DNA of 64,000 nucleotides from Clavelina lepadiformis (Eukaryota): positions 2,726,977 to 2,790,976 of the forward strand of contig NC_135248.1 of NCBI RefSeq assembly GCF_947623445.1, in the 5' to 3' direction. The position numbers and the translations under genes are program-made. Positions 11,411-63,270 of this stretch are shown in pieces; position 1 is the stretch's first letter, and every line of letters begins with the position of its first letter. The notes beneath the pieces are model-generated. The model did no database searches and was not told where the DNA came from. It saw nothing but the letters and a program-made list of their open reading frames with translations.

Positions 11411-11546
11411 ATTTCTATTGACGACGGATGTCAGAGCGTAGGAACCATCCTGCACGAGATCATGCATGCATTGGGATTCTGGCACGAACAATCACGAAGC
11501 GATCGGAATGATTTTGTCAAAGTGTTAAAACGGAACATTGAATCTG
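11411..11546 (+). CDS. Astacin-mosaic gene exon 5: zinc-binding active site ([46 protein letters not shown])
   Basis: Contains the extended astacin zinc-binding motif HExxHxxGFxHEQxRxDRD verbatim. tgaaag acceptor at 11409-11410 and G|GTGGGT donor at 11547. Confidence 0.85.
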
Positions 11547-12662
11547 GTGGGTGATGATGGAATGTTGTTAAAATAATTTCCATATGTTAGAACAGGGGTT
11601 CTCAACCTTTTTTAAACACGACCCAATTTTTCTTCATTTTGGATGCAAGCAACCCAACATTTTGCTATACCATAAAATAGAAGGACTGCAATTAACTGTG
11701 ATTCCTCAAACAGACAGAAAATGTTACTTAATCACGCACAATCGTAATACACGATACCATGGCATGATATGTTGCAAGCAAAACATTAAATACTAATACA
11801 TAATAACAACATATTCGTCCAGCTTGCTCAAGCAAGACTTTCTTGAATGCACCACCCGTTCAAGAAAAGGTGCATTGTTTCTTTGGTGTTTCGTCATAAA
11901 ACATACTATGACACAACAAATGCTCATTAAAAACGTCACAGATTTTTTAACAATGGTTATGGCTTTGCTGGTTGATGACTAAGAACTAAAAAATTTGACA
12001 ACTAATAAACATTTTTGTGCAGTTTCAAGAAAGCTACGTCAAAAACAAAACCAAGTAGGCTTGTAAGAAATGCCCGGTGACCCATAGGTTGAGGACTCAT
12101 GCATTAGAAGTTTGGTAATTATAATTGTTGTTATAATTACTGGTGAACAGTTCCATACTTAGGAAAGACCACAAATAACGAAAAAAAACGGATTAAACAA
12201 CGCAATGTGAGCAGAAAACACTTGAAGACTAGCCCCACAACTGAGGCTTGGGCAGTGGTATAGTTAACAGGTTGTGTTCACGTAAAGATTTTATTCATTC
12301 AGTTTTAGCATGATTATTCGATTTTTAACATTATCTAAGCAATTAATAACACTGTCAAGTGTAATTTATATGTCCTGTACCACATGACATTTTATATCCA
12401 GCTGTGCACTTAACGTATTGTGTTGGAAAATTTTTCGTTATTCCTTAACCTACTCACCCCACGTTATCACCTATTTACTACACTTTAAAGAAATTTTTTT
12501 TATATTGCTGGTATGAAAAGTTTACCAATGTTATAGATCACATGCAATTGCACAGTTGTTTTTTGACCAAGTTTAATATTAATACATTCAAGATTTGTGA
12601 TGTTCATTTTGTATTGACTGAAAAACTACTTATTTCACTGCTTTTTATTAAAATTTTGCCAG

Positions 12663-21465: not shown

Positions 21466-22677
21466 TCTACTGCTAATTTTAATCTAATAAACCGAAAACT
21501 GGAACTTTTGCTCCGTCATTCTTTTATCTCATTTATAAATCAGCGCCAGTTGTGCAGCTCCGCTTCATCGTCTAGCGGACATTTTCTTTAGCAAATACGA
21601 TGTATATAGACGCTGTCATTCTGATGCTCGAATAATTCGTCGTAATTGGTTTTCATTTAGAGTTAGCAAGAGAAACTCGGAAACCATTTCGTTGTTCCGC
21701 TCAAACCAGTTTCAAACGTTTCAGTTGAATCGTAATTCACAACAATATACTATACTATTGTGTAGGGCTGTGGCATTGTTAAGCAATAGGAGAGCTTGTC
21801 GCAAGTTTTCTAGCAAGAATCTGGCACCTTTTTGCTTCGAGTCAACCTTGGAGCAAGTTTCGTGCGTTTATTTAATCAGCTGAGGAATTTGCGCGAGATT
21901 TCTCGAATCTTCACTGCGCGTGTTCGTTCCATAATTTCATTCTTTTACCTCGTGCAGTTGAGGTGGTTGGTTGGTGGTTATGAGTAGTTTAGCATTTACA
22001 ATACAATGGATGCAATACAATGGATTTACAATAAAGCGGAGTTCAGTTTGGTGTGACTGGTTTGAAGTAACAACTTGTCTATGCTGATTTGAAACGTCAC
22101 TGCTTGGCTTAAGGCCCATATTTGTTGGCCGATTTGTCTGACTTGTTTAATAACGATAAGTTTTTGGTCAGGACTGCAAGTTGTATTTTGTTTGATGCTG
22201 AAACACAGCTCGCGCTTGTTGAGTTTTGTATTTGTTTGACCTTTGTTGTACACTTCCATGTTCTTGTTGTTAACCTTTGTTCCTGCTTTGTTGCAACTGC
22301 TCTCTGCGCGCGCTTTAGCGTCTTGGTCTCGTTCAGGGCCGGATTAAGACGAAACTGGGCCTGATGCTGCAGCGCAAAAACAGGCCTATTTTTTCTAGGC
22401 ATTGGTACATATGCATTCGACACTCTGACTCCACCGTACACGCGTAATCAGACCGACCAAAGAGCCTTTATTGCTTTCGACGCAGTCAGCCAAATTTTAA
22501 TGAACATGAACAATAATAACGACGTGTTATCGTAAAAACTCGAGAGTAACATCAGGCTATGTAACACCAACACAATTCAATACCAATATTGCCTGAAAAG
22601 CGGAGTTAATGAAGAAAAGGCTAATCCAGATCAACTTAACGTTGGCATATTGTCAATGCTGCGCTAGTGCTGCTTAC

Positions 22678-25197
22678 TTATACTACTGTTTTTCGAGCCT
22701 TAGCAAGCGCGAAATCTTCGATCATGTCAGTGCAGTCAAGGCTGCTCAGCACCTCATGTTCAATGCTCATAAGCGCCAGCATGTTTAGCCTTTCCTCCCT
22801 CATCGAAGACCGCAGCTCTCCTTTGACTATTCCCAGTTTTGAGAAGCTCCGCTCGCCGGAGGCATTAGACACCATCAAGCACAGATAGATGCGCAAAGCA
22901 ATCTCGACGTTTGGAAATGTTTGAGAAAGGTTCAACGACGACAAAAGCTTGTACATGGTAAGCTCTGCTGACTCGTTCACACTCACCGATTTCTGGGTGC
23001 GCATAAATGCAGCAAACTGTATGAGCTCAGCCACCAGCGTGTCTTCCAAGTCATCTGGATACGAGGAAACGAGATTTTGAGCTTTATTCTCGATCTGCTT
23101 TATGCTCAATGACGTTAGCTCCGAAAGAAATCCGAATGTTGTAGATATATCCTCATACGCCTTCATTCGCTTTTCCAGTTCAGCTAACAGTCTGTCGATC
23201 ATGACCAGATATATATGGGTTTTGAATGTTTCCCTAGGGGTGAGGTTTTCTTCGTTTGCAGCTCCTTCATCAGGCATTCGCTTTCGCTTACGGCCTCGAC
23301 GTTCTTCAGCCTTGTATTCGCCGTGAGGAACCTTTTCGATCGCCATCTGCTCATACACGTCAAATCTGTCCCGTGCAAATTGAATCGTGTCGACCAGTGA
23401 TGCCAATAAACTAGTTGCCGTATTCAGACTGACTGTAGGGTCTTGGAGGCTAATGCTCGTACTGTTGAGACGGCATAGGATATCGTTCCAGGCAGTCGCC
23501 ATAACTGCAGTCTCAAGTTCGTCCATCCTGCGCGAAAATCCGTCGGCCTGGTTTCTCGTATCGGCCTTCTGCTCCTTATCTGCCGCAAGCTCATCCAGGA
23601 CTTCTTGAATGCTCTTCCACCCTTCTACTAGCGCTTTGACAGCATCTGCACGTTCACACCATCGGGTTCCAGACAAACCTTTGAGCGTTAATGTGCAGCG
23701 ATTCTTCAGTTTCTGCCAGCGATATGTCGATTCAGACAGGAAAACGTATAGTCCATTGACAAAATGAAAAAACCTGGTACAGCCAGCGCAGCTATTAACA
23801 GCCTGGTCTCCTACCAGGTTTAAACTGTGGTTGCAGCATGGAATAAAAGCAGCATATTTACATTCTCGCTTCACAATTGCCTGGACACCGTTGTACCGTC
23901 CTGACATGTTTGACGCATTGTCATACGACTGGCCTCTGCAGTTAGTAACATCCAAGCCATTTTCCTTCAGAAAGTTCAGAAGTATGCTAGCCATGTGCGT
24001 AGCGGTGTGTCTCATCATAGGCAAGAATGTCAGGAACCGTTCAACTGGACCCAACGGCAGAACATATCGAATAACAATCGTTAGCTGGTCGAGGTGTGAT
24101 ACGTCAGGTGTAGAGTCAATCGAGACAGAGAAATACTTCGCCTTCTTGGCTTCTTTCAGGATGGTGTCCTGCACCTTTTGTCCCATGAGCTGCACCAGCT
24201 CCTCGCAAATTGTGGATGACAAATAAGAAATGTGACCTTTCCCGCAGTTCGCATATTTTCTAATATGGCTAGCCAGCAGAGTATCGTACTCCGCCAACAA
24301 CTCAATGATGCCAAGGTAGTTACCATTATGAGGGGAACCTATGATCTCATCCGCGCCCCTTATAGCAAGGCCACGCTTAGCTAGGAATATCAGAACGTCG
24401 ATGAGCCGCTTTACAATCTGGCGCCAGTAACACCGCTCTTCCTCGACCTGTTTAGCGGCTAGGTAGTCAACACGACCGGCCTCCCTCTGTCGGCTCGCAA
24501 AAGACAACATAGCCTTGCGATGACCATCGCTGCTTTCATGCATTTTTATTCTGGATTCGCCTGTCCTCCAATTGTCGAAACCGCCGGATACGAACTTGGT
24601 TGCTTGAACAGCATTACCACCGAACAACTTGCATGCAAAGCAGAACACCTTCCCGGTCGAAGGCGAGTAGCACAACCATTGTCTATAGGATTTTTCACCA
24701 TTGAGTGGATGCGTACGCACGAAGAAGGTCTTAGTGCATCGACGTTGGAATGATTCACCTAGGTATTGTCTGGCGCTCTCTTCAAACATCGATTCAGTGT
24801 GTTGGCAGTGTTTTGAACCTTTCTTGGCCCAATATTCTCGAGTGTCAGCGTTGATTTTACCCCACTGTCCTAAATCATTGGTGATATCCTCCAGCGTTTG
24901 CGCCAGTGCTTCGCCAGTGATAGCGTCTCCTTTCACCTCTGCTCTCTCCGCTGAACTTTCCCGCTCTTTATCCTCTCTTTCCTCATCAGGTTCATCTTGC
25001 TTGGCCTGGTCTTCAGGAGCGCTCGAATTCGCAATCGCATCCGACGCAGGCAATTGAGACGAAGCTGCTCGCATTCCAAAGTATGAACTCAGTTTTGGAA
25101 TTTTCGCCAGAAGCTTTTCTTGTTCTGCTGCTTCTTTCCTTTTCTTTTTCGCTTTATCCCATCCACTGAGTTGAGACGCCATAGCAAGCGTGCACAA
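22678..25197 (-). CDS. hAT transposase (ZMYM1-like: TTF-type zinc finger + DUF4371-like core + hAT C-terminal dimerisation domain), 839 aa, uninterrupted
   Basis: A single 2.5-kb intronless ORF. The TTF-type zinc finger region reads CTKTFFVRTHPLNGEKSYRQWLCYSPSTGKVFCFACKLFGG. The C-terminus (ALRIYLCLMVSNASGERSFSKLGIVKGELRSSMREERLNMLALMSIEHE) matches the hAT dimerisation domain consensus. Plus-strand ORFs inside it (23102..25057) are antisense artefacts. Confidence 0.85.
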   Translation of the reverse strand: MCTLAMASQLSGWDKAKKKRKEAAEQEKLLAKIPKLSSYFGMRAASSQLPASDAIANSSAPEDQAKQDEPDEEREDKERESSAERAEVKGDAITGEALAQTLEDITNDLGQWGKINADTREYWAKKGSKHCQHTESMFEESARQYLGESFQRRCTKTFFVRTHPLNGEKSYRQWLCYSPSTGKVFCFACKLFGGNAVQATKFVSGGFDNWRTGESRIKMHESSDGHRKAMLSFASRQREAGRVDYLAAKQVEEERCYWRQIVKRLIDVLIFLAKRGLAIRGADEIIGSPHNGNYLGIIELLAEYDTLLASHIRKYANCGKGHISYLSSTICEELVQLMGQKVQDTILKEAKKAKYFSVSIDSTPDVSHLDQLTIVIRYVLPLGPVERFLTFLPMMRHTATHMASILLNFLKENGLDVTNCRGQSYDNASNMSGRYNGVQAIVKRECKYAAFIPCCNHSLNLVGDQAVNSCAGCTRFFHFVNGLYVFLSESTYRWQKLKNRCTLTLKGLSGTRWCERADAVKALVEGWKSIQEVLDELAADKEQKADTRNQADGFSRRMDELETAVMATAWNDILCRLNSTSISLQDPTVSLNTATSLLASLVDTIQFARDRFDVYEQMAIEKVPHGEYKAEERRGRKRKRMPDEGAANEENLTPRETFKTHIYLVMIDRLLAELEKRMKAYEDISTTFGFLSELTSLSIKQIENKAQNLVSSYPDDLEDTLVAELIQFAAFMRTQKSVSVNESAELTMYKLLSSLNLSQTFPNVEIALRIYLCLMVSNASGERSFSKLGIVKGELRSSMREERLNMLALMSIEHEVLSSLDCTDMIEDFALAKARKTVV

Positions 25198-26209
25198 AAC
25201 GCAGCTAAATTTGTAAATTGTGGAACCGTAAAATTTATCGCATTAACTTGAAATCTTCCGTTACAATAAACACAACGCCGTATATTTAGCCTACGTCACA
25301 GTGCAAAAAAAAAACATTAGCAATTGTCTTAGAATTAAGGCAATCGCTAGCGTCCAAGTGAACCCCAATGCTTTCCATCATTTTTTGTTATAAACTGACA
25401 CTGGTTTCCATCATTTTTTGTTGTGAACCGGCAGTTGTTTGCACGGTGTTAGCTTGTGAATCGGCAATGAAACAACATTGAACTCAACAATAATGATTGC
25501 TAACTCTTTTCCCAACCATAATGAGTACTAATCTTACTGCCTTAACCTAATCTATTCCTAAGGTTTAGCCTAACTCAGTGGTTCTCAACCGCCGGTCCGC
25601 GAAGTACCGTATCTTACTTTCTGCCAAGCTAATTTTAATCTGGAATCATAAGCATTGCAAAGTTGATACTTCCTGTAAAACTCATTTTACGCTTGGCCGA
25701 TTTACAGCAGTAGGCTAAAACTGGCATAGCCTATCTCTCCTTCGTTGATACAGCAGAACTGTTTAATAATAAAGGTTAACCTTCCGATGACCTAGATTTT
25801 GTGCCGTTTATGATTGTTTCGTCATAAACTGCGTCTAGCTTTCAAAAAGTTTTGTAATACAAGGTCATTCTTCACTTTTCAGATGCTGCAATAGCTTGTC
25901 CTGTTAAACTACAGAAGGATTAATATGGAATCAACGAACCAACAAGTGTATTTTAACAAGAAGGAAAAAACTAAGACTTCTGAAACAAATAATTCTCAAA
26001 ATGGAAATGAACCAAGTATCAGTAGGTGCAAATGTAAACTACGAAAAGGGCATATGCAGATAAGTTGAGTGTCACAGAGGGAAGTAAGAAACGAAAAGGG
26101 GAATTTGTCAGGCAATACAATAAAAATACTTGGAGCTTGGTTTTACAATAGTTCCGGGTAGTGAACAATCGTCACGGCCCTAATGTTTGGTGTGCTCCCA
26201 AATTCTGCC

Positions 26210-26500
26210 AAATGACGTTATGAAACCTTCTAAAGTTGTTCGTCACTTTCATTCAAAGCACAACAATCTTGAAGGCAAGCCACTTGAATATTTTGGACGA
26301 ATATTCTCTGATATGAACGATTAAAAAAAGCAAATGAAAAGATGACGACTACCGAAAAATCCTTTCTTCATGAATCCTATCTAGTTTCTCTACGAATAGT
26401 TAAAACCAAAAAAAGCATACACGATTGGGGAAGAGTTAATAAAGCCGTGCATCTTATCTGCGGCTGAAGTAATGAAGGGCCCTGAAACAGCTCGAAAAGT
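26210..26500 (+). pseudogene. Frameshifted fragment of a second hAT-type transposase (GTF2IRD2/ZBED5/Charlie-like N-terminal region)
   Basis: Plus-strand translation gives NDVMKPSKVVRHFHSKHNNLEGKPLEYF in one frame, then EKSFLHESYLVSLRIVKTKK, and after a +1 shift HTIGEELIKPCILSAAEVMKGPETARKVL. These are the characteristic MKPSKL.RH..TKH / ESY.VS..IAK..KPHTIGE.LI.P motifs of this family. Stops and frameshifts mean it is not coding. Confidence 0.5.
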
Positions 26501-28369
26501 GTTATAATTTTTCATCTTAAATAAGTAGTCTATGCCAAAATCTTGCTTTATCTTACGTGCCTAGGCGTAACACTGTGCCTAGGCGTGCGAAAGTCGGACT
26601 ACAAATTTCATAATAAGAATTATTTGTGGGTTAATTAAGCAAAGGAAAACTGTTCAGCGTCCGGAAAATTCACGTCTGTTTTCGTCTGGGCCTATTTCAG
26701 GAATGGGCCTAATGCTGCAGCATCAATAGCATCCACCTTAATCCTGCACTGGTCTCGTTGTTGCGTTTCTGCGCTTTGGCGTTTGTACAGTTTGTGTTAA
26801 AGAGTATTTTTGGAGCCTGTAAATTGGTGATTTTTTTGGATTTTTTATAGAGTTTTTTTTTGTTGGCGTTTATTGATTTATTTTTTCCTGGCCATGCAGT
26901 GACCTTCAGTTTAAATATGTTCAGTTTCTCTGGATTCTGTTCAAAAGTTGAGCTCGAGATATCTGGAATCTGGTGTTTCAGGAGAATTTGTACCCCCAAA
27001 GCTGATCTGAAATCTTCAAATCTGAACATTTCTTGCTGTGAACTGAACATGTCAAGATTTGTAGCAGAACTACAGTATACGTAGGCAGCATAGAAACTTA
27101 GAAATCTGCTTTGGCTTTGTTCAGTTCAGTAAAATTGTGTTGGGGGTGTATTTTAAGCTTTATTTAACATCACGGTCACGTTGCCAAAAGTTCCCCTTTT
27201 TGAGATGACGAAAATGGTGACTTAGGAATTTTTCTATTTCATAAAAGTTCCAGGGCCTTAATAATTACCAACAATACAATTATGATGTCATTGGAGCCAA
27301 AGTTTGATAATGATTGTGTCCTCCCCATCGCCCCTTTGTGGGTCGTCACCATCCTACGATAATTTATAGTTCTGGTGAGTTCGTTTTATTGCTGAAAATA
27401 AAACTTAAATTTTTTCATACTCGTTTCCCAAGATATTTCTTCCATCAGCTGAAGCTTCTACTTTGAAGTTCCAAGTCTTCTAGTCACTTTCATCTACTTC
27501 CGTGCAACCAGTAACTAATAGTGGTTACGCCAATAGTAAGTGGTAATGTAATGTCTTTCTTGGGCCCGTATTTAATTCTCACCATATTAAATATCGATTT
27601 TTCCCGAGAATCGTGTTGATATTTGTCTATTTTCATTCCTGGTTTTAATCTCTTGCAGGTCATTTCCCTGATAGTTTCTCGTATAAACCAAACATTTTCA
27701 CGTTTCACGTTTCCCAAACATTGTGACATCTTACACAAGCTTCAAGACGTACATATACAAGACGTACAAGACTTCAAAACAGTAATGAAATTATTAGACA
27801 CATAGCTACGATTAAAAGCTACTTCAAAGTTTTAGCAAGTGTATTCGATCGTCAACTAATAATAACAATATTGTTTCAGACTCTTTCAACATTCAATTCC
27901 ACTTCAATAACTTCGATAGTGTTTGTTCAATATCAAGAAGGCCTCGGCCTCTATAGCGGCCTCGACCCAGCTATAGCTCGCCATCGGTAGGTCTCGTTTT
28001 AGCAACTAGTTTCCTGAATTAAACTAATGAATTGCTGGTGTCAAGCTATTAATCATGGGTGATGGTTTGGCTGTGTAAGCATGGGTTGACCCTTCTGTTA
28101 CTTTTAAGGTCTAATGGAAGTCCAACCACCAATCAACCAACCAACCAACCAAAGCAATATTTAGTGGCAGAGCATAATAACGTTAGGAGCGCGCTGGTAA
28201 CCAACGAGGGACGATGAGAAGAAGTAGCGATGAGACAAACACGGAAGAGAGAGGAAGCTTCCGACGACAAGTTGCCGGCGCGCCGGTGCATCGTAGGTTA
28301 CGGTTCAGGCGGCATTACCATCGCACATTGCGCCCCTGGTGTAGAAATGTTAAACCATGTAGTGCAGCA

Positions 28370-37625: not shown

Positions 37626-40600
37626 GAGCTTAAACCATAGATATCCTATAAAACACTAGATCGCTCAACTCGCCTCTGGAATTGAAGCCAAATTGAAACT
37701 TTGCGAATCCGCCATTAAGGGACCCAGTCAGTCAGTCCCAACAGTGGTGCTGAATTGTGATGGAGTTGTATCGACAATTGTCTTGTTTCCAGTACGGTAT
37801 ATTTGTATAAATAGCCTAGTTCTAACGTTATACAGAACTTATACGGGCTAGGACTCTTTATACATCGTAGGATACGCCGATGCCGTATGTAGCCTGGACT
37901 ACCGTATATTTTGAAAATTCATAGCTTTAGCACGATATTATTTTAGAGATAGGCTACTGGAATAATCGGAGATGGGCATTGATACAGTACCTTCGTACAT
38001 TACTTTGTAATACCATGTTCCGAATCCCAGACAGGAATGTGTTACATTGTAAGCTATAGGCCTACCGTCAATACCGGATTTCTTTTAGTCGTCTCAACAG
38101 CTAGGCTATTCGCCATCGGTACTTTTATAGTGATAGTTTCAAGATTTTTAGAGATTTATGCCTAGGCTAGTTTTGGTTCTATGCCAGTACTTTCAAAGTC
38201 AAAGTATTGACTGCCCACATCTGGAAATATGTTCAGTTAACTGTAGTCTATAGGCCTAGTTTTCTATTGTGCCACACTTTAACTACAAATAAGAATCTGA
38301 TTTGTTGGACCCTATTGTAAAACGTGTAAAATTTGGTAAAAAAGGACATAAACATTTAGCCAAATTTATTTACATGTACAATTTTACAAAACAGAAGAGA
38401 TAAAACAAAACCATTCACTTATCACTATACTACATACATTACTATGTCAATGACTGACATTTGAAATTAAACAGTAACGAGTCATCCACTTGTCATTACT
38501 GATGGCTGAATAGTACAAGTTTGTTAAATTTTTTTCGTATCTTTTTGCAGGTAATTTCTTCATTGTACTCTTTTCCAAGGTGGTAAAGTCGAATTTTGCA
38601 GTATGCTTTTGAAACTAACTTTATAAGGTCAAAGATATGGTTGTTGGTGACACTTGTGTCTAACATATGATATTGAAGATTGCAGAATGCTAAGGATAGG
38701 TTGATATTAGCCAGAACAGATGTTGCAATACCTTCTGATACTCCTTTTTCTAAACCGACATAACAAATTCAAGGTATATATGATAATTATGCAACTAAGT
38801 TGTGTTTACATATATATCAGATAAATATAATAATCATCAGACAAATATAAATTATTTTGCTACATTTTACCTTGGGGAAGTTTTCCTCTTGTAGTTTTAA
38901 GAAGACGTTGAAACTGTTTTTCAGTTTCCTCGCAAACTACTACTACACTTTCGGAAGGTTTAAATAATTTGCCTTTATCTTTCATTTGCAGGAAGTCAGA
39001 CACTGGAAAATTGGTTGTTGAACCAAGAGCTTGACTACAGTGACTGCACAACATTTGCTTATCAACCATTTTGCTAACATAGCCAGCTACGTATGAAATG
39101 GCAGCTTTTTTGTATTCAGACAAACCAAGAATGTTTGGAATTTCACTGAGGCTATGATCTTCGTCGACTTCTACATCCCGTCCAAGTAGGTCATATTTTC
39201 TTATAATATGAGCACCTGATTCTGTCAGCTGAGGGTTACTAGTTGAAGCACCATTGAATATATGCAAAATTTCAATTGGTAACTTTTGTTCACAGTTACC
39301 AACTCCACCTTTAATATCACTTCTTAGAAGTAAGCGCTTATAAGCTGCTGTAAACTGCTGGCTTGTCGGGTTGTTGTTGAAACCTCCTGCTGACCTTATG
39401 GCTCCAAAAAACAACTCAAGGTGGTCTTGGCTAAGCTTGTAAGTTAAGATATATCTTAGTTGAGATTGATTTTTCCCAACTAAATCTTCAAACAACCCTT
39501 TTATACTTCTTATTGCCATCAAGAATCCCAGAAAGCCTGTTTTCCGTCTTGTTTTAAGCATTTGTACCCCAGCAGTGTCCTTCAACTTGAGAATGTAATC
39601 AAAAGAAAAATCAAGAAATGGCCTCCAGCTGGACTCATTGCTTCTTTTCAAAGGTGATTTGAATCCTTTAGCACATAGCACGCCGAACTTTGGAACTGTT
39701 GTAGTTTCAATGTGTTGCTGCAGTACTCAATGGCATCAGCTACACTTGCACTTATTGCTTGAGCTGCCAAGTTAACCTTCATTTTTTGTTGTTTCCAGTT
39801 TATATGGGCCAACTTAAGTTTGTTTGCAAGGCGTAACCCTTCTTCTTTTTGAAGTTTCTGCAGCTGAACCAAGTATTCCCATTTCACTTTCTTTCCTTCA
39901 AAATCTACAAGTATGCCACCTTCACCAAAGGTATTGCGTATAAGTTTAAGCATATGGCACACATCTAACAACATATATATTTTGGAATTTTCATCTGCAG
40001 GATGGTTAAAATAAGTTTGGAAGTTATCTATGTCTAAAGACAAACCAGGTTCATTCATCATAGCAAGATGACTGGAAGGAACTCACAGGAACTCACAGAA
40101 GAAACTACTACTCCTATATCATGGAGCCGCCCAATACAAACATTTACAAGGTTAGCTTTCTCTTTACCAGTCAGACTGTCAGTAAAAAAATAGCCACAAG
40201 GAATTTTCCATGAATTGTTTAACGAAACAACCATTAGCACTAAAGCATCTTTTGCAACAGGTGAGGAATCATCTGCTGGCATTTCCACACCAATATCAAC
40301 AAAACCTCGGAAACGATGGCCATCCCAAGAAACATGCTTCTTAATGGCCATTTCATCCAGCATTAAAGCACAAATTACCTGCTTGTTTTTCTTCTTCAAC
40401 TCTGGCTGAAAGTACTCTGAATGCAGGTTCTGTAAAACCAGGTTCAGCCGACACTTTGGTGTACCATTTTCTAATGGTTGATTGTGCTGGCAAAGCTAAG
40501 TTGAAGGTTTTTCTGACATACTCATATGCCTTGGAAGAGTAAAACTGAAGGGTTAGTGCAAATGCCTTCAATTCCGTGGAATACTTGCAACCTTTAGAGG

Positions 40601-42407
40601 AATGCAGTTGTTTTGCTGCTTTTTTCATGACATGCAGTGGCACACCTGTAAATGATGCCTTCAACACTTCTTCACAATTTGAAGATAGGAGTTGATTTTT
40701 ATGCAAACATTGAATTAAAGTTTTCATTGAAACTATTTTCTGTTTAAATATGCGTGACTTTTGCTGACTGAGTTTTAAATTTTTTCGAATTGCTGCAATT
40801 TGTTTGCTTCGTGACTGGATTTTCGTATTCAATTTAGTGAGTGAATTGCTTATGCTGTATGTATGGTCAGACTTTACTTTATCACAGGAGCTTCTTTTAA
40901 CAAGGCAATCACTTGTTTTATCTTTACTACCGGAACTGCATTGTAACTGCAAACCAGTTTTCATATTTCGTGTATATGGTTTCTTCCTTTCATGACCAGC
41001 CTGCAGTGAATCAATTCAAAGTATATATATTATATTATATATTATACTGCCAGTATATATATTAGTATATTATATCAGTGCCTGTATACTTGCCAGTATG
41101 TTATAGCCAATAATTTCCAATAATTAGTCTTGAGTCTGATGGAAATCTGTTGTACATATACTTGGTACTAAATATATGTTTTAATAAAAATATGTCATCG
41201 AATGCAGCTGAGACTGTTCGGGTGCACTTTTAGCTGAGGTAAGTTATTAGTTGAACGCCATGCCAATACACAACAGCTGCAATGTTAATGAGATGGTCAG
41301 AACTTACAGCTCATTAAATTGAACGACTGGTGCAAAGACACGATTAATTAATAATTCCTGTTGCACAAAAACACCTGCCGGTGCTACTACACTATTGCTC
41401 TTTACAACTCAGTTTTCAGCAACTAACCTGTAGCCTATATTCCTGGCATATAAAGGCTGTGGTTATCGCACCGCTGTAGTTGTTTAACATCTGCAGGTTT
41501 TAAAGTTTCATATGGGGGCCATTTTGCTGCTTGTGGTCTTGTTTTAGCAAGGTATAACAACATTAGCACCACTCTTTTCGAGGAATGTCCTGTCAATGGG
41601 CCACTGAGATATTTAATAAATAGACGACTTTGGAAAAAAATTGATCACTTATCAACTACTATGTTAGTAGTAAAAGAGTAGTTACTTTTGGCTACGTAGT
41701 TACTTTTGGCTGGATAGTAGTTACTTTTCATTATTGGTGATGGTTATGGTGAAGAGAGTTAGTTAGCTTGAAAAGGCACAATACAGCCAATATGCCTCTA
41801 AGAAGCATGAAGTTGAATAAGAGATACAGTTAGACTATAGACCGGAAACATATAGACATAAGTAGCATATTTAACACCTTAAGCAATGAGAAAAGAGCTT
41901 TCAGTTACAGGACTTTATGTCAGTGCCAGTATAGGCTAGGCTACGCTACAGTTTACATACGGTACCGGTATTAACGTTAAACCAAGAAAAACATTAGTTG
42001 TAGGTAATTATTATTATGCACAAAAAATGCTTACGCATGGAAGGTTCTTGGATGACAAATTTCCTTTCTTGTCTCATCATCCGAACTCCCTTCACTGGCA
42101 CTTCTTTCCATTAACTTATCGCTTACTGTAGCGCTATTAACTCTCTTTTTCCTTTTTCCACAACCGTAAGCACAGCATTGAGTTCCCCTTTTATCCATGT
42201 TTTATATAGATTACAAATTGACGAAGAAATCTCACAATTTAACGTTGGACCTAACAGCTTAAAAGCCTTATAAAATCGTGTTCAAAGCCCAGTTTGGGTC
42301 CCTTACTGTTCCCGCCAAATCTGTTCAATTGGCTTCATTTTTGGTTGGTCGAAAACAATAAGAAGAGCGATCTAGTGTTTTATAGGATATCTATGGCTTA
42401 AACCCGC
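37626..42407 (-). mobile_element. P-element/THAP9-like DNA transposon (~4.8 kb) bounded by ~110-bp terminal inverted repeats, with a frameshifted transposase
   Basis: 37629-37745 (cttaaaccatagatatcctataaaacactagatcgctc...) is the reverse complement of 42290-42404 (...gagcgatctagtgttttataggatatctatggcttaaac). Between them lies a P-transposase-like coding region split across four overlapping ORFs. Confidence 0.6.
38860..40964 (-). pseudogene. P-element (THAP9-type) transposase coding region, interrupted by at least three frameshifts
   Basis: Consecutive minus-strand ORFs 40353..40964, 40058..40399, 39648..40061 and 38860..39681 carry P-transposase family motifs: KYSTELKAFALTLQFYSSKAYEYVRKTFNLALPAQSTIRKW, LMLDEMAIKKHVSWDG..FRGFVDIG, WKIPCGYFF, and DVCHMLKLIRN (the D..H..K..RN motif). 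A 10-bp tandem duplication ggaactcaca|ggaactcaca at 40063-40082 sits exactly at one ORF junction. Confidence 0.65.
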
Positions 42408-43015: not shown

Positions 43016-43502
43016 TTACTTTTGTTACAAGCAATACACTCTTCACTTTCAGTGCGTAAACACACACACGTCAGTCGTGCATGTATTGCAACATGCTTTC
43101 AGCAACTAGCCCTACAGTTCTCACGCATTGTTTGATCATAAAATACAAATACGGTAGCGGCTACCGTAGGCCTTTGTGATGAAGATTGCGTAGCTTTAAA
43201 CGTAACTGAGTGTGAAATGCAAAAATTGTGTTTAATATGAATATGCGCTTATTTACACACCGGGTAAATTTTCCTACTTTGTAATGAGAGTGTGCGGCCC
43301 GCCGGCTGCAACATTTTTTCTAATGCGGCCCTCAGTACAAAAAGTTTGCCCAGCCCTGTGATAGAGGTCTTATCCAAGACGTCACCATAGAAAAAGTATA
43401 AATCGTTCCGGTCCAGTGCGCATATGATCTTAGTTTGTGATGGTTTGTTGTTTTGGCGTTTTTGCGAACGTAATTTCACAGTACTGTAAAATCCTTTGAG
43501 TC

Positions 43503-43620
43503 ACACGTTGTGGGTGGAATGCGATGATTGCGATCGCTGGTATCATGTTAAATGCACCCATTTGGATCCCAATCTCACCCAACATGAAATCGGAAAGCTC
43601 ACTTACCTCTGTCATAACTG
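43503..43620 (+). other. Isolated coding fragment resembling the C-terminal two-thirds of a PHD finger (WVECDDCDRWYHVKCTHLDPNLTQHEIGKLTYLCHNCE-stop)
   Basis: Plus-strand frame gives C-x2-C-x4-H-x2-C-x18-C-x2-C, ending in a stop, preceded by a possible tttgag acceptor. No partner exons identified. Confidence 0.2.
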
Positions 43621-50499: not shown

Positions 50500-51435
50500 C
50501 TAACAAAAGTCCTTCTCTCTAAGACGATCAATATGTGCACAGAGTTTTAACGCGGGACCAAGCGGAAAATTCATGGAGCTTACTAAATGCTCCTCATGCA
50601 AAAGCAATAAAGCAGAACCATCAATTTCTTGGGCTCGAAAATCTGCTGCATATTGAACAGCATCGGGAAGAGAACGCATGTAATTCCACACATCATCAAC
50701 AGACCACTGTCCCGGTTGAACGGGCTTGCCACCAAGATACGGAACAGTTGGTTCTGGGGATGGAGTTGGACTGTAACTGAAAACTGATGCACTATCGCTG
50801 CTACTGAACTTGTCATCATCAGAAAACGAATTGCTGCCAGACAGGCTCTGTGAAGATGAAAGTACATCCTCTTCCTTTTTAGCTACATAGCTAGGTCTGC
50901 CACGACGTGGCTTGTTTGATAACGATGATAGATTCCTGATTCTGGACTTGCCTCTCCTTGAAACATGATTGTTTTGCCATAGTTTATTGTATGAATGCAC
51001 TCCACCTGTAATACGGGTCTTGTATTTACGAGCACACTTAAGTGAGCAAAACTGCTGACTTGGGCTTGAAAACTTTACTCGAGGTCCAGAGAAGCCACAT
51101 TGCTCGCAGGTGGCAACTGCCACCTCAATATTGTCTTGATTGTCAACATTCATTTTTTCGTCATCTTCTGACTTCATGTCCTTTTCTCGTTGCAAAATTT
51201 CTTGTTGCCTTTTTCTGATCAAGGACAGCTGATGATTGGACAAACCACAGTTTCTGGTTGGTGTAAATGGTGTCAGAGATTCTTCAAAGACAAACCCATC
51301 GATTATATGAGTAATTATATGCTGTTTAACTTCAGGAATCCTTTTGTTGTTATTTTCCGCGTTATCTTGAATTTGGTATGCATCGTTATCGTTGACATTG
51401 TCTACTTGGGACACTGAAGTAAGAGTTGTTTCCAT
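50500..51435 (-). CDS. Intronless 311-aa protein with an FCS-type zinc finger and C-terminal SAM domain (polyhomeotic / Scm-like Polycomb-group architecture)
   Basis: ATG-initiated 936-nt ORF. CEQCGFSGPRVKFSSPSQQFCSLKCARKY fits the FCS zinc finger (C-x2-C...C-x3-C with FCS...CA). The C-terminus (WSVDDVWNYMRSLPDAVQYAADFRAQEIDGSALLLLHEEHLVSSMNFPLGPALKLCAHIDRL) has the SAM-domain hydrophobic pattern including the GxALLLL core. Ser-rich low-complexity linker. Confidence 0.65.
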   Translation of the reverse strand: METTLTSVSQVDNVNDNDAYQIQDNAENNNKRIPEVKQHIITHIIDGFVFEESLTPFTPTRNCGLSNHQLSLIRKRQQEILQREKDMKSEDDEKMNVDNQDNIEVAVATCEQCGFSGPRVKFSSPSQQFCSLKCARKYKTRITGGVHSYNKLWQNNHVSRRGKSRIRNLSSLSNKPRRGRPSYVAKKEEDVLSSSQSLSGSNSFSDDDKFSSSDSASVFSYSPTPSPEPTVPYLGGKPVQPGQWSVDDVWNYMRSLPDAVQYAADFRAQEIDGSALLLLHEEHLVSSMNFPLGPALKLCAHIDRLREKDFC

Positions 51436-59675: not shown

Positions 59676-60807
59676 TGTATTCGTTTTATTTGAGAACTCC
59701 GACGGAACCCTCGCCTCATTTATAGTGTAGTGTTGTAGATAATCAACATATCATATAACTATTAAGCTCATGACTTGTGTAATTGTTCATCTCCTGTAAA
59801 ATGCACTGTTTGTAGTTAATTTTAACTATTATAGCCTTACTGCAAAACTGCATTGTCACCTGTTTCATTTTTTATATGTTGCACAGTAAAGCAAGCATAA
59901 TTTGAGGTTGCCTGTTATATCAGAAGGCATTGTAGTATTATTTGGAAGTTATCAAAAGCAAGGCCTTCAAAAACTCAGTCACATGTCATATTTTATCCGA
60001 ATATAACCGTCAGAATCGACAGGATTAAGAAACAACTCACTATTACGCAAGGATAATGAACACTTGGTCTTATGTGGTGTCTTTGCATTAGTTACAACAT
60101 TTTTTTTAATACCTTTACTAATTTATATACAAATATATCTATTAAATATCATATTGCATATCTTACATTAGTCATATTGTTCTTCAAAGTGATAACTACG
60201 TAATATGTTACTGGGTATTTTCAAATTTCACTTCCTGCATTTGATATACATGTGTTGCTTGCAGGAAAAGGTTTTCGCATGGGCTGTTTTCAATGTCATG
60301 TCAGTTTAATACGTTGTTACTTAAATATTTGAGAAAATGCATTTTTTGTTTTTTATTTCAAATTTTACCTTCATATCAAGCCTAAATGTTTCTAAACAGT
60401 AAAAAGTGAATGTGATAATAGATTTAATTGTTTCGGCTACATATATTATTAAATAGCCCATTTTTAACAGACGTATAGTTTAGCAACTGAAAACTATTCA
60501 CTTTTGTGTTGCATTCTGCCTCAAGACGTTTCTTTGATCATTGTGTTACCGCATATGTAAGCTTACTGGTTTGCTGGATGCAACTCAAACATTATATTGC
60601 AATCTTCACCTTACAATATATAGTGTAGTTATTATATCATAAATTGAAACAAAAGTGAACGAATAAATTAAGTTGTGACAAGCTGGTTTAATTGGTCATA
60701 TTATAAGTTTAGACAATTTCCACAAACCGACGTAGTTGCTTCTAATTATCTAAGTATTAGTGAAGTTAGTTTTTGAGCTTTCACTCCATCTATTATAATG
60801 TAGCGGA

Positions 60808-61126
60808 GACATGTGCAACCAGTGGCCCGCGGGCCGCACTGTGGCCCTCGTGGTGCTCAGCAAAATGTTAGAAATGTATACTAGCCATCACTCTTTGATG
60901 GCTAGTATACACTTTCGTCATCTTCCATCGACAATTATTCACAGTTTTTCAATAAACTGTCGTACACAGGTGTTGTGGACTGCATTAAATCTGTTTCTTG
61001 ACTACATAAACTATACTTTCATAGGAAAATGATACTAATTTTTTTCTGGAAAAATTCATGCGGCCCGCGTTATCATTCAAAATTTTGTATTTGGCCCTCC
61101 AGTGAAAAAGGTTGCACATGCCTGAT
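60808..61126. mobile_element. MITE (~320 bp, hAT-like) with terminal inverted repeats catgtgcaacc...ggttgcacatg, flanked by a perfect 8-bp target-site duplication GTAGCGGA
   Basis: GTAGCGGA at 60800-60807 and again at 61127-61134. TIR core catgtgcaacc at 60810-60820 and its reverse complement at 61111-61121. Internal palindrome gtatactagccatc / gatggctagtatac. A GC-rich subterminal ccagtggcccgcgggccgcac. Confidence 0.6.
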
Positions 61127-63270
61127 GTAGCGGAAGGATACACAGTCATCATTTCTCAAGGTGTTTGATGTTTACATGTTTTGATTAAATGTTTCTGTTA
61201 CGTTGCATTTGTTTGAGTTACTTATGGTTATCAATTGGAAATAAAATTGGTATACACTTTGCACAAGACCTACTTTTCAAAATTACCGTTTTAGTTGTAT
61301 CAATGCTAAGTCATATGGTTATAATGTGTAAGTAATGAATTTACAGCAATTTAAAAAGATTTCGTTGAACGCAGCTTCAGCAAATATTTCCTTGTTACAA
61401 TCGAGATAGCTGGGAACATTTTATGTAAAGATGGGAATAATTGAAGCTCGTTGCAGAAGTGACCAAAATTTCTCGGCTTGTGAACATTTTTTAAATGATC
61501 AAACCAAAGCAATTTACAACTTGACAAAAATTATAAATATAACTAAATGTGTATGTGTTGTATTCACTTCACACATATTGGTTTTTAACTAACGGTAGAG
61601 TGATCATGTTAAACAAATGGACAGTTGATGAAAGGTTAACTATAAGGAAAAAATATATTTTAAATGGCAAGAAAACTGCCAACGTTACCTTAGCACACCT
61701 AGACGAGATGCAAGAGTGTACTTAAAGGGGGCGTCAAACACCAAAAAATGTCATAAAATATTTGTTTATTTTATTATACAGTAAATTTACTAAAAGACTG
61801 TTTACTCGAAAAATCCTCCATTGGGCTCTCTAAAATTTTGCTTGTCAATTTATTATGCTTTGAACTACCATTCCATAATATGCCATCAAAAAACCATGAT
61901 TCAAACGTTTTTAACAGAGGCCCAAAATAAACACTAGAATTTTTGGTCTAAAAAACCCAAGTTTAGCTACTTTAATGCTAATTTTTAGCATAATTCTGCA
62001 CGCGACCTGGGACATTGAAGCACGCCAACTGCTAGGGTAAAAGCCCAGGCTAGAAAACAACACCAATCATGCTGCCTTCTGATTGGTCTAAACATGTTTT
62101 TTAAAGCCCTAGTAGGACGTCCAACAAAATCATGCAGATCTTAGTTTTAAGTCTTTGTCGGCTCCTTAAACATGGGCACATGGCATCATCAAAATTTGCA
62201 AAACTGTTTCCTAAATGCCAACATCCAATGTTTGTCTTGGTGATTTTTCAGTTTTTTGACACTGTGCTTCATACAACCAGCTGTTAACCTTCTTCACGAG
62301 TCTTTATGCCACAGGCAATGCTGCTTTTTGCAAAGACAAAATTTTAATGTTAGTAACTTGCATTATAGCATAAAGTAAACGCGCAAGAGCTGGTAAAATG
62401 TGCAACATAATGGAAAGCGTAACACCGACAATTTTTCTAGCACCTTCTAAATACTTAATGTTGAAACATGAAAATAAAGAATTGCAGAATTGAATTCATG
62501 ATAAAAACACTTCAAAAATCTATGAATCATTCCATAAATAGATGTACGTCAAAACCTCTGCTGTAAAAAAGTGACTTACATAATAGTATACAAAATCAAT
62601 AGGATTATTTTGTTTCAAAACAGAAGATTAAATGATTTTCAGACGAAATAAGCATATTTTGCAAGTTTTACTTGAAAGACTTTAAATGATATGTAGAAAG
62701 GCAAACAACAACAAAGATAAAAATTTCTATGGCAACAGCACGTATCACGGTGATTAGGGATACAGAATTATATTATCAAAATAGTTTATCAATCTGATAT
62801 ACTGCAACACGATTATCGTCGGGGTCACCAGGGCCAAGTAATTAGCCTGGCTTGATGATGCCCAAATTTACACCTCATGAGTTACTGAACAAAAATACGA
62901 TAACAAAAAATTATATCATTGCGCTAAGAGCGGTCTGCTGCCTGATGGCGTTCTATGGTGTTCCACAAGATGGGGACGCGTGATTGGGCGAGCACCGCGA
63001 TTTATTCTCAACACTTCACTCGTCAATTTCAGAGACTTGTCTCCGCTCCCTGGAAAAAAAATCATTCCTATGCTTTTTCCAATTTTCAACCAAATAAAAA
63101 TAAATTTAAATAATCGCTCAATATTGATTAACCTCAGTTTTCCAGGCTTAAAATCACATTAAAAGCAGGGACCTTTAAACTTTGAACATTATTGTTCATT
63201 ATTAATACAGATATATACTTAGCACACGCAGCATAAAAATGTTTCCTGGTCGTTCATTGTAGGCACAATG

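Follow-up and report, generated by a model that had tools for sequence, protein, structure and literature searches.

A probable internally deleted Buster-type hAT element in the genome of the tunicate Clavelina lepadiformis

Locus and boundaries of the 319-bp element

We analyzed a 64-kb stretch of the Clavelina lepadiformis genome (contig NC_135248.1, positions 2,726,977 to 2,790,976; hereafter the window), in which GC content ranges from 32 to 45%. The translation of the open reading frame (ORF) at 50500–51435 on the minus strand matches polyhomeotic-like protein 3 of this colonial ascidian with 100% identity, and ~9.4 kb from this polyhomeotic-like gene, in AT-rich non-coding DNA, lies a 319-bp segment with inverted ends and flanking direct repeats. 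Comparison with relatives in other tunicates suggests, with a probability of roughly 0.88, that this segment (60806–61124) derives from a Buster-type hAT DNA transposon by internal deletion and is no longer autonomous. The element is genuine yet ordinary and joins an already known class of transposon derivatives. Its insertion is routine in a genome of 210 Mb (PMC10884593) of which 43.9% is reported as repeats and DNA-transposon remnants form a large share (PMC10950049).

An earlier note on this sequence had placed a perfect 8-bp target-site duplication (TSD), GTAGCGGA, on both sides of the element. This 8-mer occurs twice in the whole window (60800–60807 and 61127–61134), with 319 bp in between, but the register was 2 nt off. 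The direct repeat spans 10 bp (ATGTAGCGGA, 60798–60807 and 61125–61134) and extends no further, which argues against its being part of a longer local duplication. The 11-nt inverted ends that had been pointed out (catgtgcaacc at 60810–60820 and ggttgcacatg at 61110–61120) are present, although they are not flush with GTAGCGGA, from which 2 nt divide them at the left end and 6 nt at the right end. The relatives show T-A at positions 4 and 5 of the TSD, and only the register ATGTAGCG satisfies this rule, the register GTAGCGGA having G-C at these positions. As judged from this family comparison, the element is therefore 60806–61124 and its TSD is ATGTAGCG, which fits nnnTAnnn on both sides. At its first position, the element carries G in place of the C shared by all relatives, and we attributed the two additional repeated bases (GA) to this mutated first base and the invariant second base, which match the right flank coincidentally. 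A perfect TSD read by eye can sit in the wrong register, which a family-wide target logo corrects. The features of the element, including its terminal inverted repeats (TIRs), are as follows.

60798–60805, plus strand: left TSD ATGTAGCG, identical to the 8-mer at 61125–61132; placed by the family termini and the nnnTAnnn rule
60806–60820, plus strand: left TIR GAGACATGTGCAACC (family form CAGACATGTGCAACC, C>G at the first base), 13/15 complementary to 61110–61124
60806–60900, plus strand: 5' segment, parent positions 1–95, with an aligned-site identity of 94.7–95.7% to L002, L003, and L005
60828–60838, plus strand: subterminal motif CGCGGGCCGCA, 11 nt, a perfect inverted repeat of 61059–61069
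60872–60914, plus strand: hairpin of parental sequence and filler, with a 20-bp stem and a 5-nt loop by fold prediction
60901–60912, plus strand: filler GCTAGTATACAC, 12 nt, exact reverse complement of the parental GTGTATACTAGC (60874–60885 in the window)
60913–61124, plus strand: 3' segment, terminal 212 bp of the parent, with an aligned-site identity of 92.8–95.7% to L002, L003, and L005
61110–61124, plus strand: right TIR GGTTGCACATGCCTG (reverse complement CAGGCATGTGCAACC), placed by comparison of the family termini
61125–61132, plus strand: right TSD ATGTAGCG, matching the left copy

The assignment to the hAT superfamily made in the earlier note agreed with these features. The element is short, non-coding, and bounded by short TIRs within the ~10–25 bp usual for hATs and of the type beginning with CAG or a similar triplet (right end, as reverse complement, CAGGCATGTGCAACC; left end GAGACATGTGCAACC against the family form CAGACATGTGCAACC), and it is flanked by an intact 8-bp duplication, as are its relatives by perfect or 7/8 TSDs. 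In its length of 319 bp (MITE-sized elements being shorter than ~800 bp), TIRs, TSD, and lack of coding capacity, it corresponds to a miniature inverted-repeat transposable element (MITE). It has no similarity to transposases, and its longest ORF (73 aa) starts in the left TIR and merely reads through the TIR and an internal junction. A TRF search gave no hits.

Relatives and target-site preference

The 73-aa ORF matched two 64-aa proteins of ENA assemblies, leading to two contigs with long elements (L002 and L003), and a search with fragments of the parent transposase led to further relatives (L004–L006). The contigs belong to assemblies ERZ25067582 and ERZ22157276, with L002–L004 and L006 in the former. 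In L002 and L003, positions 60807–60900 and 60913–61124/61130 of the window matched the two extremities of the long elements with 87–96% identity, and between these extremities lay fragments of hAT transposase together with nested retroelements. In every parent (n = 5), the match to the window element was interrupted at identical points, 60900 and 60913. All five ENA relatives start with CAGACATGTGCAACC, and the right end, located in four of them, is of the GGTTGCACATGCCTG type, with one substitution each in L003 and L006. Their 8-bp TSDs are CTATAGAA, CTCTACAG, GCATATAC, and TTGTAATC/TTGTAACC.

A larger sample came from an exact 21-mer of the right end (ending in the TIR), which was found in at least 120 JGI contigs from five samples of one tunicate host; ~40 of these copies were complete and TSD-flanked, with lengths of 1.2–4.8 kb. 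Among 56 distinct flanks, T occupied position 4 in 51 and A occupied position 5 in 44. This logo and the window TSD ATGTAGCG both agree with nnnTAnnn, the consensus published for TSDs of Buster-family hATs (PMC3517528). For the left end, neither the JGI metagenome contigs nor the GTDB genome contigs contained a match to a 26-mer, and the IMG/VR viral contigs contained none to a 24-mer pattern.

Parent element and its transposase

The parent element is ~2.45 kb long and encodes a GTF2IRD2/FAM200-like hAT transposase of ~590 aa. Its most compact representative (L005, 8898–11349; 2452 bp) is flanked by the perfect TSD GCATATAC and contains a reading frame of ~590 aa interrupted by two frameshifts; all parent copies seen carry a frameshifted or interrupted transposase, with no intact one among them. 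Precomputed Pfam matches of the parent ORFs comprised zf-C2H2-SPIN-DOC, DUF4371, FAM200-ZBED5_RNase-like, and FAM200-GTF2IRD2-like. Named homologues were annotated as 'general transcription factor II-I repeat domain-containing protein 2-like', and more distant homologues also carried Dimer_Tnp_hAT. These matches accord with the DDE/RNase-H-like transposase, hAT-type in its C-terminal region, that is expected of autonomous hAT relatives, and the GTF2IRD2-like names and FAM200-ZBED5 Pfam labels point to a possible placement in the Buster clade.

The window contains a second, much longer hAT element, with which the parent was compared:

22334–26751, minus strand: apparently autonomous hAT with TIRs CAGGGCCGGATTAAG / CAGTGCAGGATTAAG, TSD GTCTCGTT, and an 834-aa ORF at 22678–25182

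BLASTP aligned the parent transposase with the transposase of this hAT over a core of 201 aa with 24% identity (E = 2e-8). The aligned motifs in the catalytic core were DESTN/DSTPD, DDAPAM/DNASNM, and RWLSRAD/RWCERAD. This core alignment confirmed the hAT ancestry of the parent, yet marked the two families as distinct. Fragments of the parent transposase had no tblastn match in the 64-kb window, and the window hAT transposase had none in L002 or L003. Among ORFs looked up exactly, one on the plus strand of its contig (5831–6808) was absent from the protein collection.

Deletion junction, filler, and hairpin

Aligned with its parents, the 319-bp element is composed of parent positions 1–95, 12 nt of filler, and the last 212 bp of the parent; ~2.14 kb is missing, with the transposase gene wholly included, and in the L005 translation the 3' segment begins ~30 nt past the transposase stop codon. 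The filler is absent at the junction position in all five parents. Its parental template lies 15 nt upstream, and the two form the internal hairpin that the earlier note had described as part of the element. The hairpin is present (arms 60872–60890 and 60896–60914, 95% complementary) and was predicted to fold with −17.9 kcal/mol (z = −9.9 versus shuffles), but it is not a feature of the family. Because the second arm is missing from all five parents, the hairpin is, as judged from these alignments, a snap-back repair scar at the deletion junction.

Several details of the junction are compatible with a specific course of repair. A 5-bp palindrome (CATCA-CTCTT-TGATG) was already present in the parents at the breakpoint, and the sequence with which the snap-back template goes on (TTCTAAC) has a TT in common with the 3' segment (TTTCGTC). 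In the simplest reading, repair synthesis would have broken off within the element, probably in gap repair following excision, and the nascent 3' end would have folded back on the pre-existing palindrome. The folded end would then have been extended by 12 nt with its own strand as template and joined to the 3' segment via the 2-nt (TT) microhomology. This course corresponds to abortive gap repair, which was reportedly proposed by Rubin & Levy in 1997 and Yan et al. in 1999 for the conversion of Ac to Ds. The filler also keeps an ancestral G (as C in ...ACAC) that is lost from arm 1 of the window copy (A at 60874), and thus at least one substitution is younger than the deletion. The locus is instructive in that an element of MITE size can be read alongside its coding parent and the precise scar of the repair that produced it, and this scar supports the model of MITE origin by interrupted gap repair with template switching.

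Age and mobility of the element

The insertion had been called young from its intact TSD. Sixteen intact bases do not imply this, being compatible with several percent divergence; moreover, the element carries a mutation at its first base, and one arm of the hairpin has diverged. At aligned sites, the element is 4–7% diverged from its closest relatives, from which a deletion of 8 bp and an insertion of 2 bp also set it apart. The change of the first base from C to G probably renders the element immobile now. Movement would otherwise occur only if a transposase of its own family were supplied in trans and recognized the 15-bp TIRs and the subterminal GCGGGCCGCA / GGCCC motifs. The predicted empty allele of the insertion site is CTATTATAATGTAGCGGAAGGATAC.

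Searches for further short copies, which covered the window as Clavelina genome sequence, loci from other tunicates, and a protein collection, were negative. BLASTN of the element against the window returned no second copy, with only chance matches of 11–15 nt and a weak match at 43.3 kb. The junction GATG|GCTAGTATACAC|TTTC had no further copy in ~1.0 Mb of loci from other tunicates, and no matching ORF of the short type was present in the protein collection. Exact look-up of the 73-aa ORF, a junction-spanning 55-aa ORF, and a flank ORF found no filled or empty allele on record, and a chimeric query of two right-end ORFs and a host ORF had no matches to element ORFs.

Alternative explanations

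Several observations weigh against the reading of the element as an internally deleted Buster-type hAT copy. All relatives come from other tunicate hosts; neither a parent-type element nor a second short copy was seen in the 64-kb window or the 5-kb contig L001, the only Clavelina sequence covered. The left terminus is G instead of the family C, leaving a 10-bp repeat whose last two bases have to be ascribed to coincidence. For the reconstructed transposase, a local Pfam scan returned only a zinc finger and a sub-threshold DUF4371, the local set being without FAM200-type models and thus under-annotating the parent, and a PDB sequence search returned no relative. The repair mechanism was read from a single junction, and in-situ replication slippage or hairpin processing would give an identical scar.

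That the direct repeat, inverted ends, and hairpin reflect chance or a local duplication unrelated to transposition can practically be set aside. Short repeats are frequent at this spacing in AT-rich sequence (2080 pairs of repeated 8-mers and 230 pairs of 10-mers lie 100–1000 bp apart in the window), and the direct repeat alone is therefore uninformative. However, the combination of an 8-bp repeat flush against an inverted repeat of at least 12/15 occurred four times in the window compared with 0.33 times per Markov-shuffled window, a ~12-fold enrichment, and three of the four cases are clear transposons, namely the 319-bp element in the ATGTAGCG register, the hAT at 22334–26751, and a P-like element at 37636–42395. 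The repeat also stops at 10 bp, and end-to-end homology with TSD-flanked elements of other genomes already refutes chance and establishes the element as real. Almost as improbable is a selected function of the 20-bp hairpin, for example as a MITE-derived miRNA precursor or a protein-binding palindrome. Its high stability would fit such a role, but the second arm is found in no relative and is hence not conserved, one mismatch has already arisen between the arms, and an Rfam search of the hairpin matched no family.

The two other alternatives concern the mobilization of the element. The earlier note had raised the question of whether its TIR is shared with the intact hAT at 22334–26751, whose transposase would then be the mobilizing one. 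The latter looks active, with its intact 834-aa ORF, perfect TSD, and a 99.86% identical second copy, and both families are DUF4371-type hATs whose ends begin with CAG. Nevertheless, the TIRs CAGGGCCGGATTAAG and CAGACATGTGCAACC share only CAG, similarity over the terminal 90 nt is not significant (p = 0.13–0.57), the local alignment of the ends being no better than that of shuffles, the transposases are divergent, and the parent with matching ends encodes another transposase. The hAT at 22334–26751 is of a different family and is not likely the mobilizer, a role that we consider very unlikely for it. Less remote, though still doubtful, is the explanation that the element belongs to an amplified, recently active MITE family of Clavelina and that the short form, with this junction, transposed to the present site. 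Its MITE-like size, TIRs, and lack of coding capacity, the two intact TSD copies, and the abundance of related families in another tunicate (at least 120 ends) would accord with this. Against it stand the absence of a second copy from the window, of junction-bearing copies from the ~1.0 Mb of tunicate loci fetched, and of short-type ORFs from protein databases, together with the mutated terminal base and the 4–7% divergence. Furthermore, interrupted gap repair generates derivatives of this kind in place, at the donor site, and one TSD-flanked copy is thus no proof that the short form moved; the element may not have transposed at all since it was shortened.

Comparison with known systems

The Ac clade is said, after Arensburger et al. 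in 2011, to target nTnnnnAn, whereas the family of the short element is Buster-type with nnnTAnnn targets. The closest analogy in structure is with Ds-del and Ds2 of the maize Ac/Ds system, which are likewise non-autonomous. In these, internal deletion has removed the transposase gene, in many cases leaving filler DNA where the remaining ends (~100–200 bp of the autonomous element) were joined; they have 8-bp TSDs and need a transposase in trans (PMC3260210). The filler found here differs in being a 12-nt snap-back copy of adjacent element sequence and no captured genomic DNA, and Ac/Ds is a plant system, whereas the present host is a tunicate.

In its family traits, the element resembles Mar, a hAT/Buster MITE of Drosophila willistoni that is short and non-coding, has TIRs starting with CAG and 8-bp TSDs with the consensus nnnTAnnn, and whose putative parent transposase resembles TFII-I (GTF2IRD2)-type proteins (PMC3517528). 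Unlike Mar, demonstrated in dozens of copies and with the TIR CAGRGGTAGGC, the short form described here is known from one copy with the TIR CAGACATGTGCAACC, and its parent-to-derivative junction is directly readable. The Tc1/mariner-derived, Stowaway-like MITEs of Aedes aegypti similarly have an identifiable autonomous-type parent and a microhomology-bounded deletion (PMC3814204); they differ in superfamily (Tc1/mariner, with a TA target) and in that their short forms were amplified into families.

Possible horizontal transfer between tunicates

We compared the divergence of the transposon ends with that of a host gene. In assembly ERZ25067582, L002–L004 and L006 have 23–44x coverage, and a contig (L007) with the polyhomeotic orthologue P0065 has 24x. 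P0065 is 43–48% identical to the Clavelina polyhomeotic protein and thus about as far from it as the proteins of Ciona or Phallusia are. Four-fold degenerate sites of this pair are saturated (15 of 50 identical, 30%), and the only alignable host DNA was 244 nt of the SAM-domain exon, at 72%. In contrast, the non-coding transposon ends are 93–96% identical between Clavelina and the ERZ25067582 / ERZ22157276 host, and the ENA copies are 93–95% identical among themselves. Near-identical ends alongside a saturated host gene are the pattern predicted by horizontal transposon transfer, and they point to such transfer among ascidians, in a comparison that rests on one host gene and its assumed orthology. 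We give roughly even odds that this Buster-type hAT family moved horizontally between distant tunicates and that the Clavelina copy is a solitary derivative of a short-lived invasion. If so, the snap-back junction would mark the moment at which autonomy was lost.

Other elements of the window and related hosts

The earlier note had connected motifs at three further sites of the window with the ends of the short element, as one dispersed family. The first, at 43.3 kb, proved to be a related orphan end:

43191–43358, minus strand: orphan terminus of a sister hAT family (CAGGGCTGGGCAAACTTTTT...GGGCCGCA) with flank TGATAGAG, recognized by similarity to the right end of the short element

Its alignment with the right end scored 29 against a null of 13.3 ± 2.2, and over 169 bp it shares 84.6% identity with L027 and L117, copies from the JGI host. 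The flank TGATAGAG is another nnnTAnnn site; a TSD-matched partner end was sought in the window and not found. This end (CAGGGCTGGGCAAACTTTTT...GGGCC...GCGGGCC) may resemble the terminus of mammalian hAT-Charlie MITEs of the MER58 type, as may, less closely, the right end of the short element; we take both likenesses as leads only. Directly downstream of the orphan end, at 43500–43580, is a PHD-finger-like coding stretch, CDDCDRWYHVKC.

The connection did not hold for the motifs at 25576 and 11593 (11590–11610 in the note). Both are present and 14/15 alike, but neither is significantly similar to the ends of the short element (p = 0.02–0.8). The former is internal to the hAT at 22334–26751 and conserved in the second copy of that element, and the latter is the end of a separate, older MITE-like element of 509 bp (11593–12101). 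The window therefore holds several Buster-type hAT relics of different families and no single dispersed family. The ends of the 509-bp element, CAGGGGTTCTCAACC and, as reverse complement, CATGAGTCCTCAACC, match at 11/15 TIR positions and are flanked by a decayed TSD (TGTTAGAA / CATTAGAA); it lies in an intron after an astacin-type metalloprotease exon (~11450–11520).

The 834-aa ORF of the hAT at 22334–26751 contains DUF4371 and Dimer_Tnp_hAT domains, and its TSD GTCTCGTT is perfect. A second copy, 99.86% identical and with different flanks, was found at 285–4702 of L001 (Logan contig, run ERR771006), which implies recent activity. The 8-bp flanks of this copy do not match each other (TTCCTACG versus GTTGTCAC), and the contig may be a chimeric short-read assembly joining flanks of different copies. 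Upstream of the ORF but inside the element, the translation of 26100–26500 (...VVRHFHSKHNNLEGKPLEYFGRIFSDMND) resembles by eye the N-terminal zinc-finger region of FAM200/GTF2IRD2-type transposases; this would hint at a composite element if the likeness holds, but the N-terminal fragment of the parent had no significant tblastn match to 26100–26500.

The P-like element at 37636–42395 is a DNA transposon, P-element/THAP9-like, whose 15-bp TIRs (CATAGATATCCTATA) are perfect, as is its 8-bp TSD (GCTTAAAC). Its ORFs at 38860–40964 on the minus strand match Tnp_P_element, TNP-like_GBD, and TNP-like_RNaseH_C, and are split over at least three frames.

The JGI samples 3300001913, 3300001539, 3300001689, and others (L008–L127) hold a tunicate host genome whose polyhomeotic orthologue, P0061, is 53% identical to the Clavelina protein. 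The ends of this TIR family in the host, at least 120 in number, belong mostly to non-autonomous elements of 1.5 and 1.9 kb, and identical insertions were assembled in several samples. One 612-bp segment (L117, 477–1088) has one end (CAGGCATGTGCAACCTTTTTCACTGG...) of the family of the 319-bp element and the other (CAGGAGTGGGCAAACTTTTT...) of the 43.3-kb type; its flanks, CACTAAAT and CTCTACAC, do not match, and the segment could be a hybrid or else consist of two truncated elements that abut each other.

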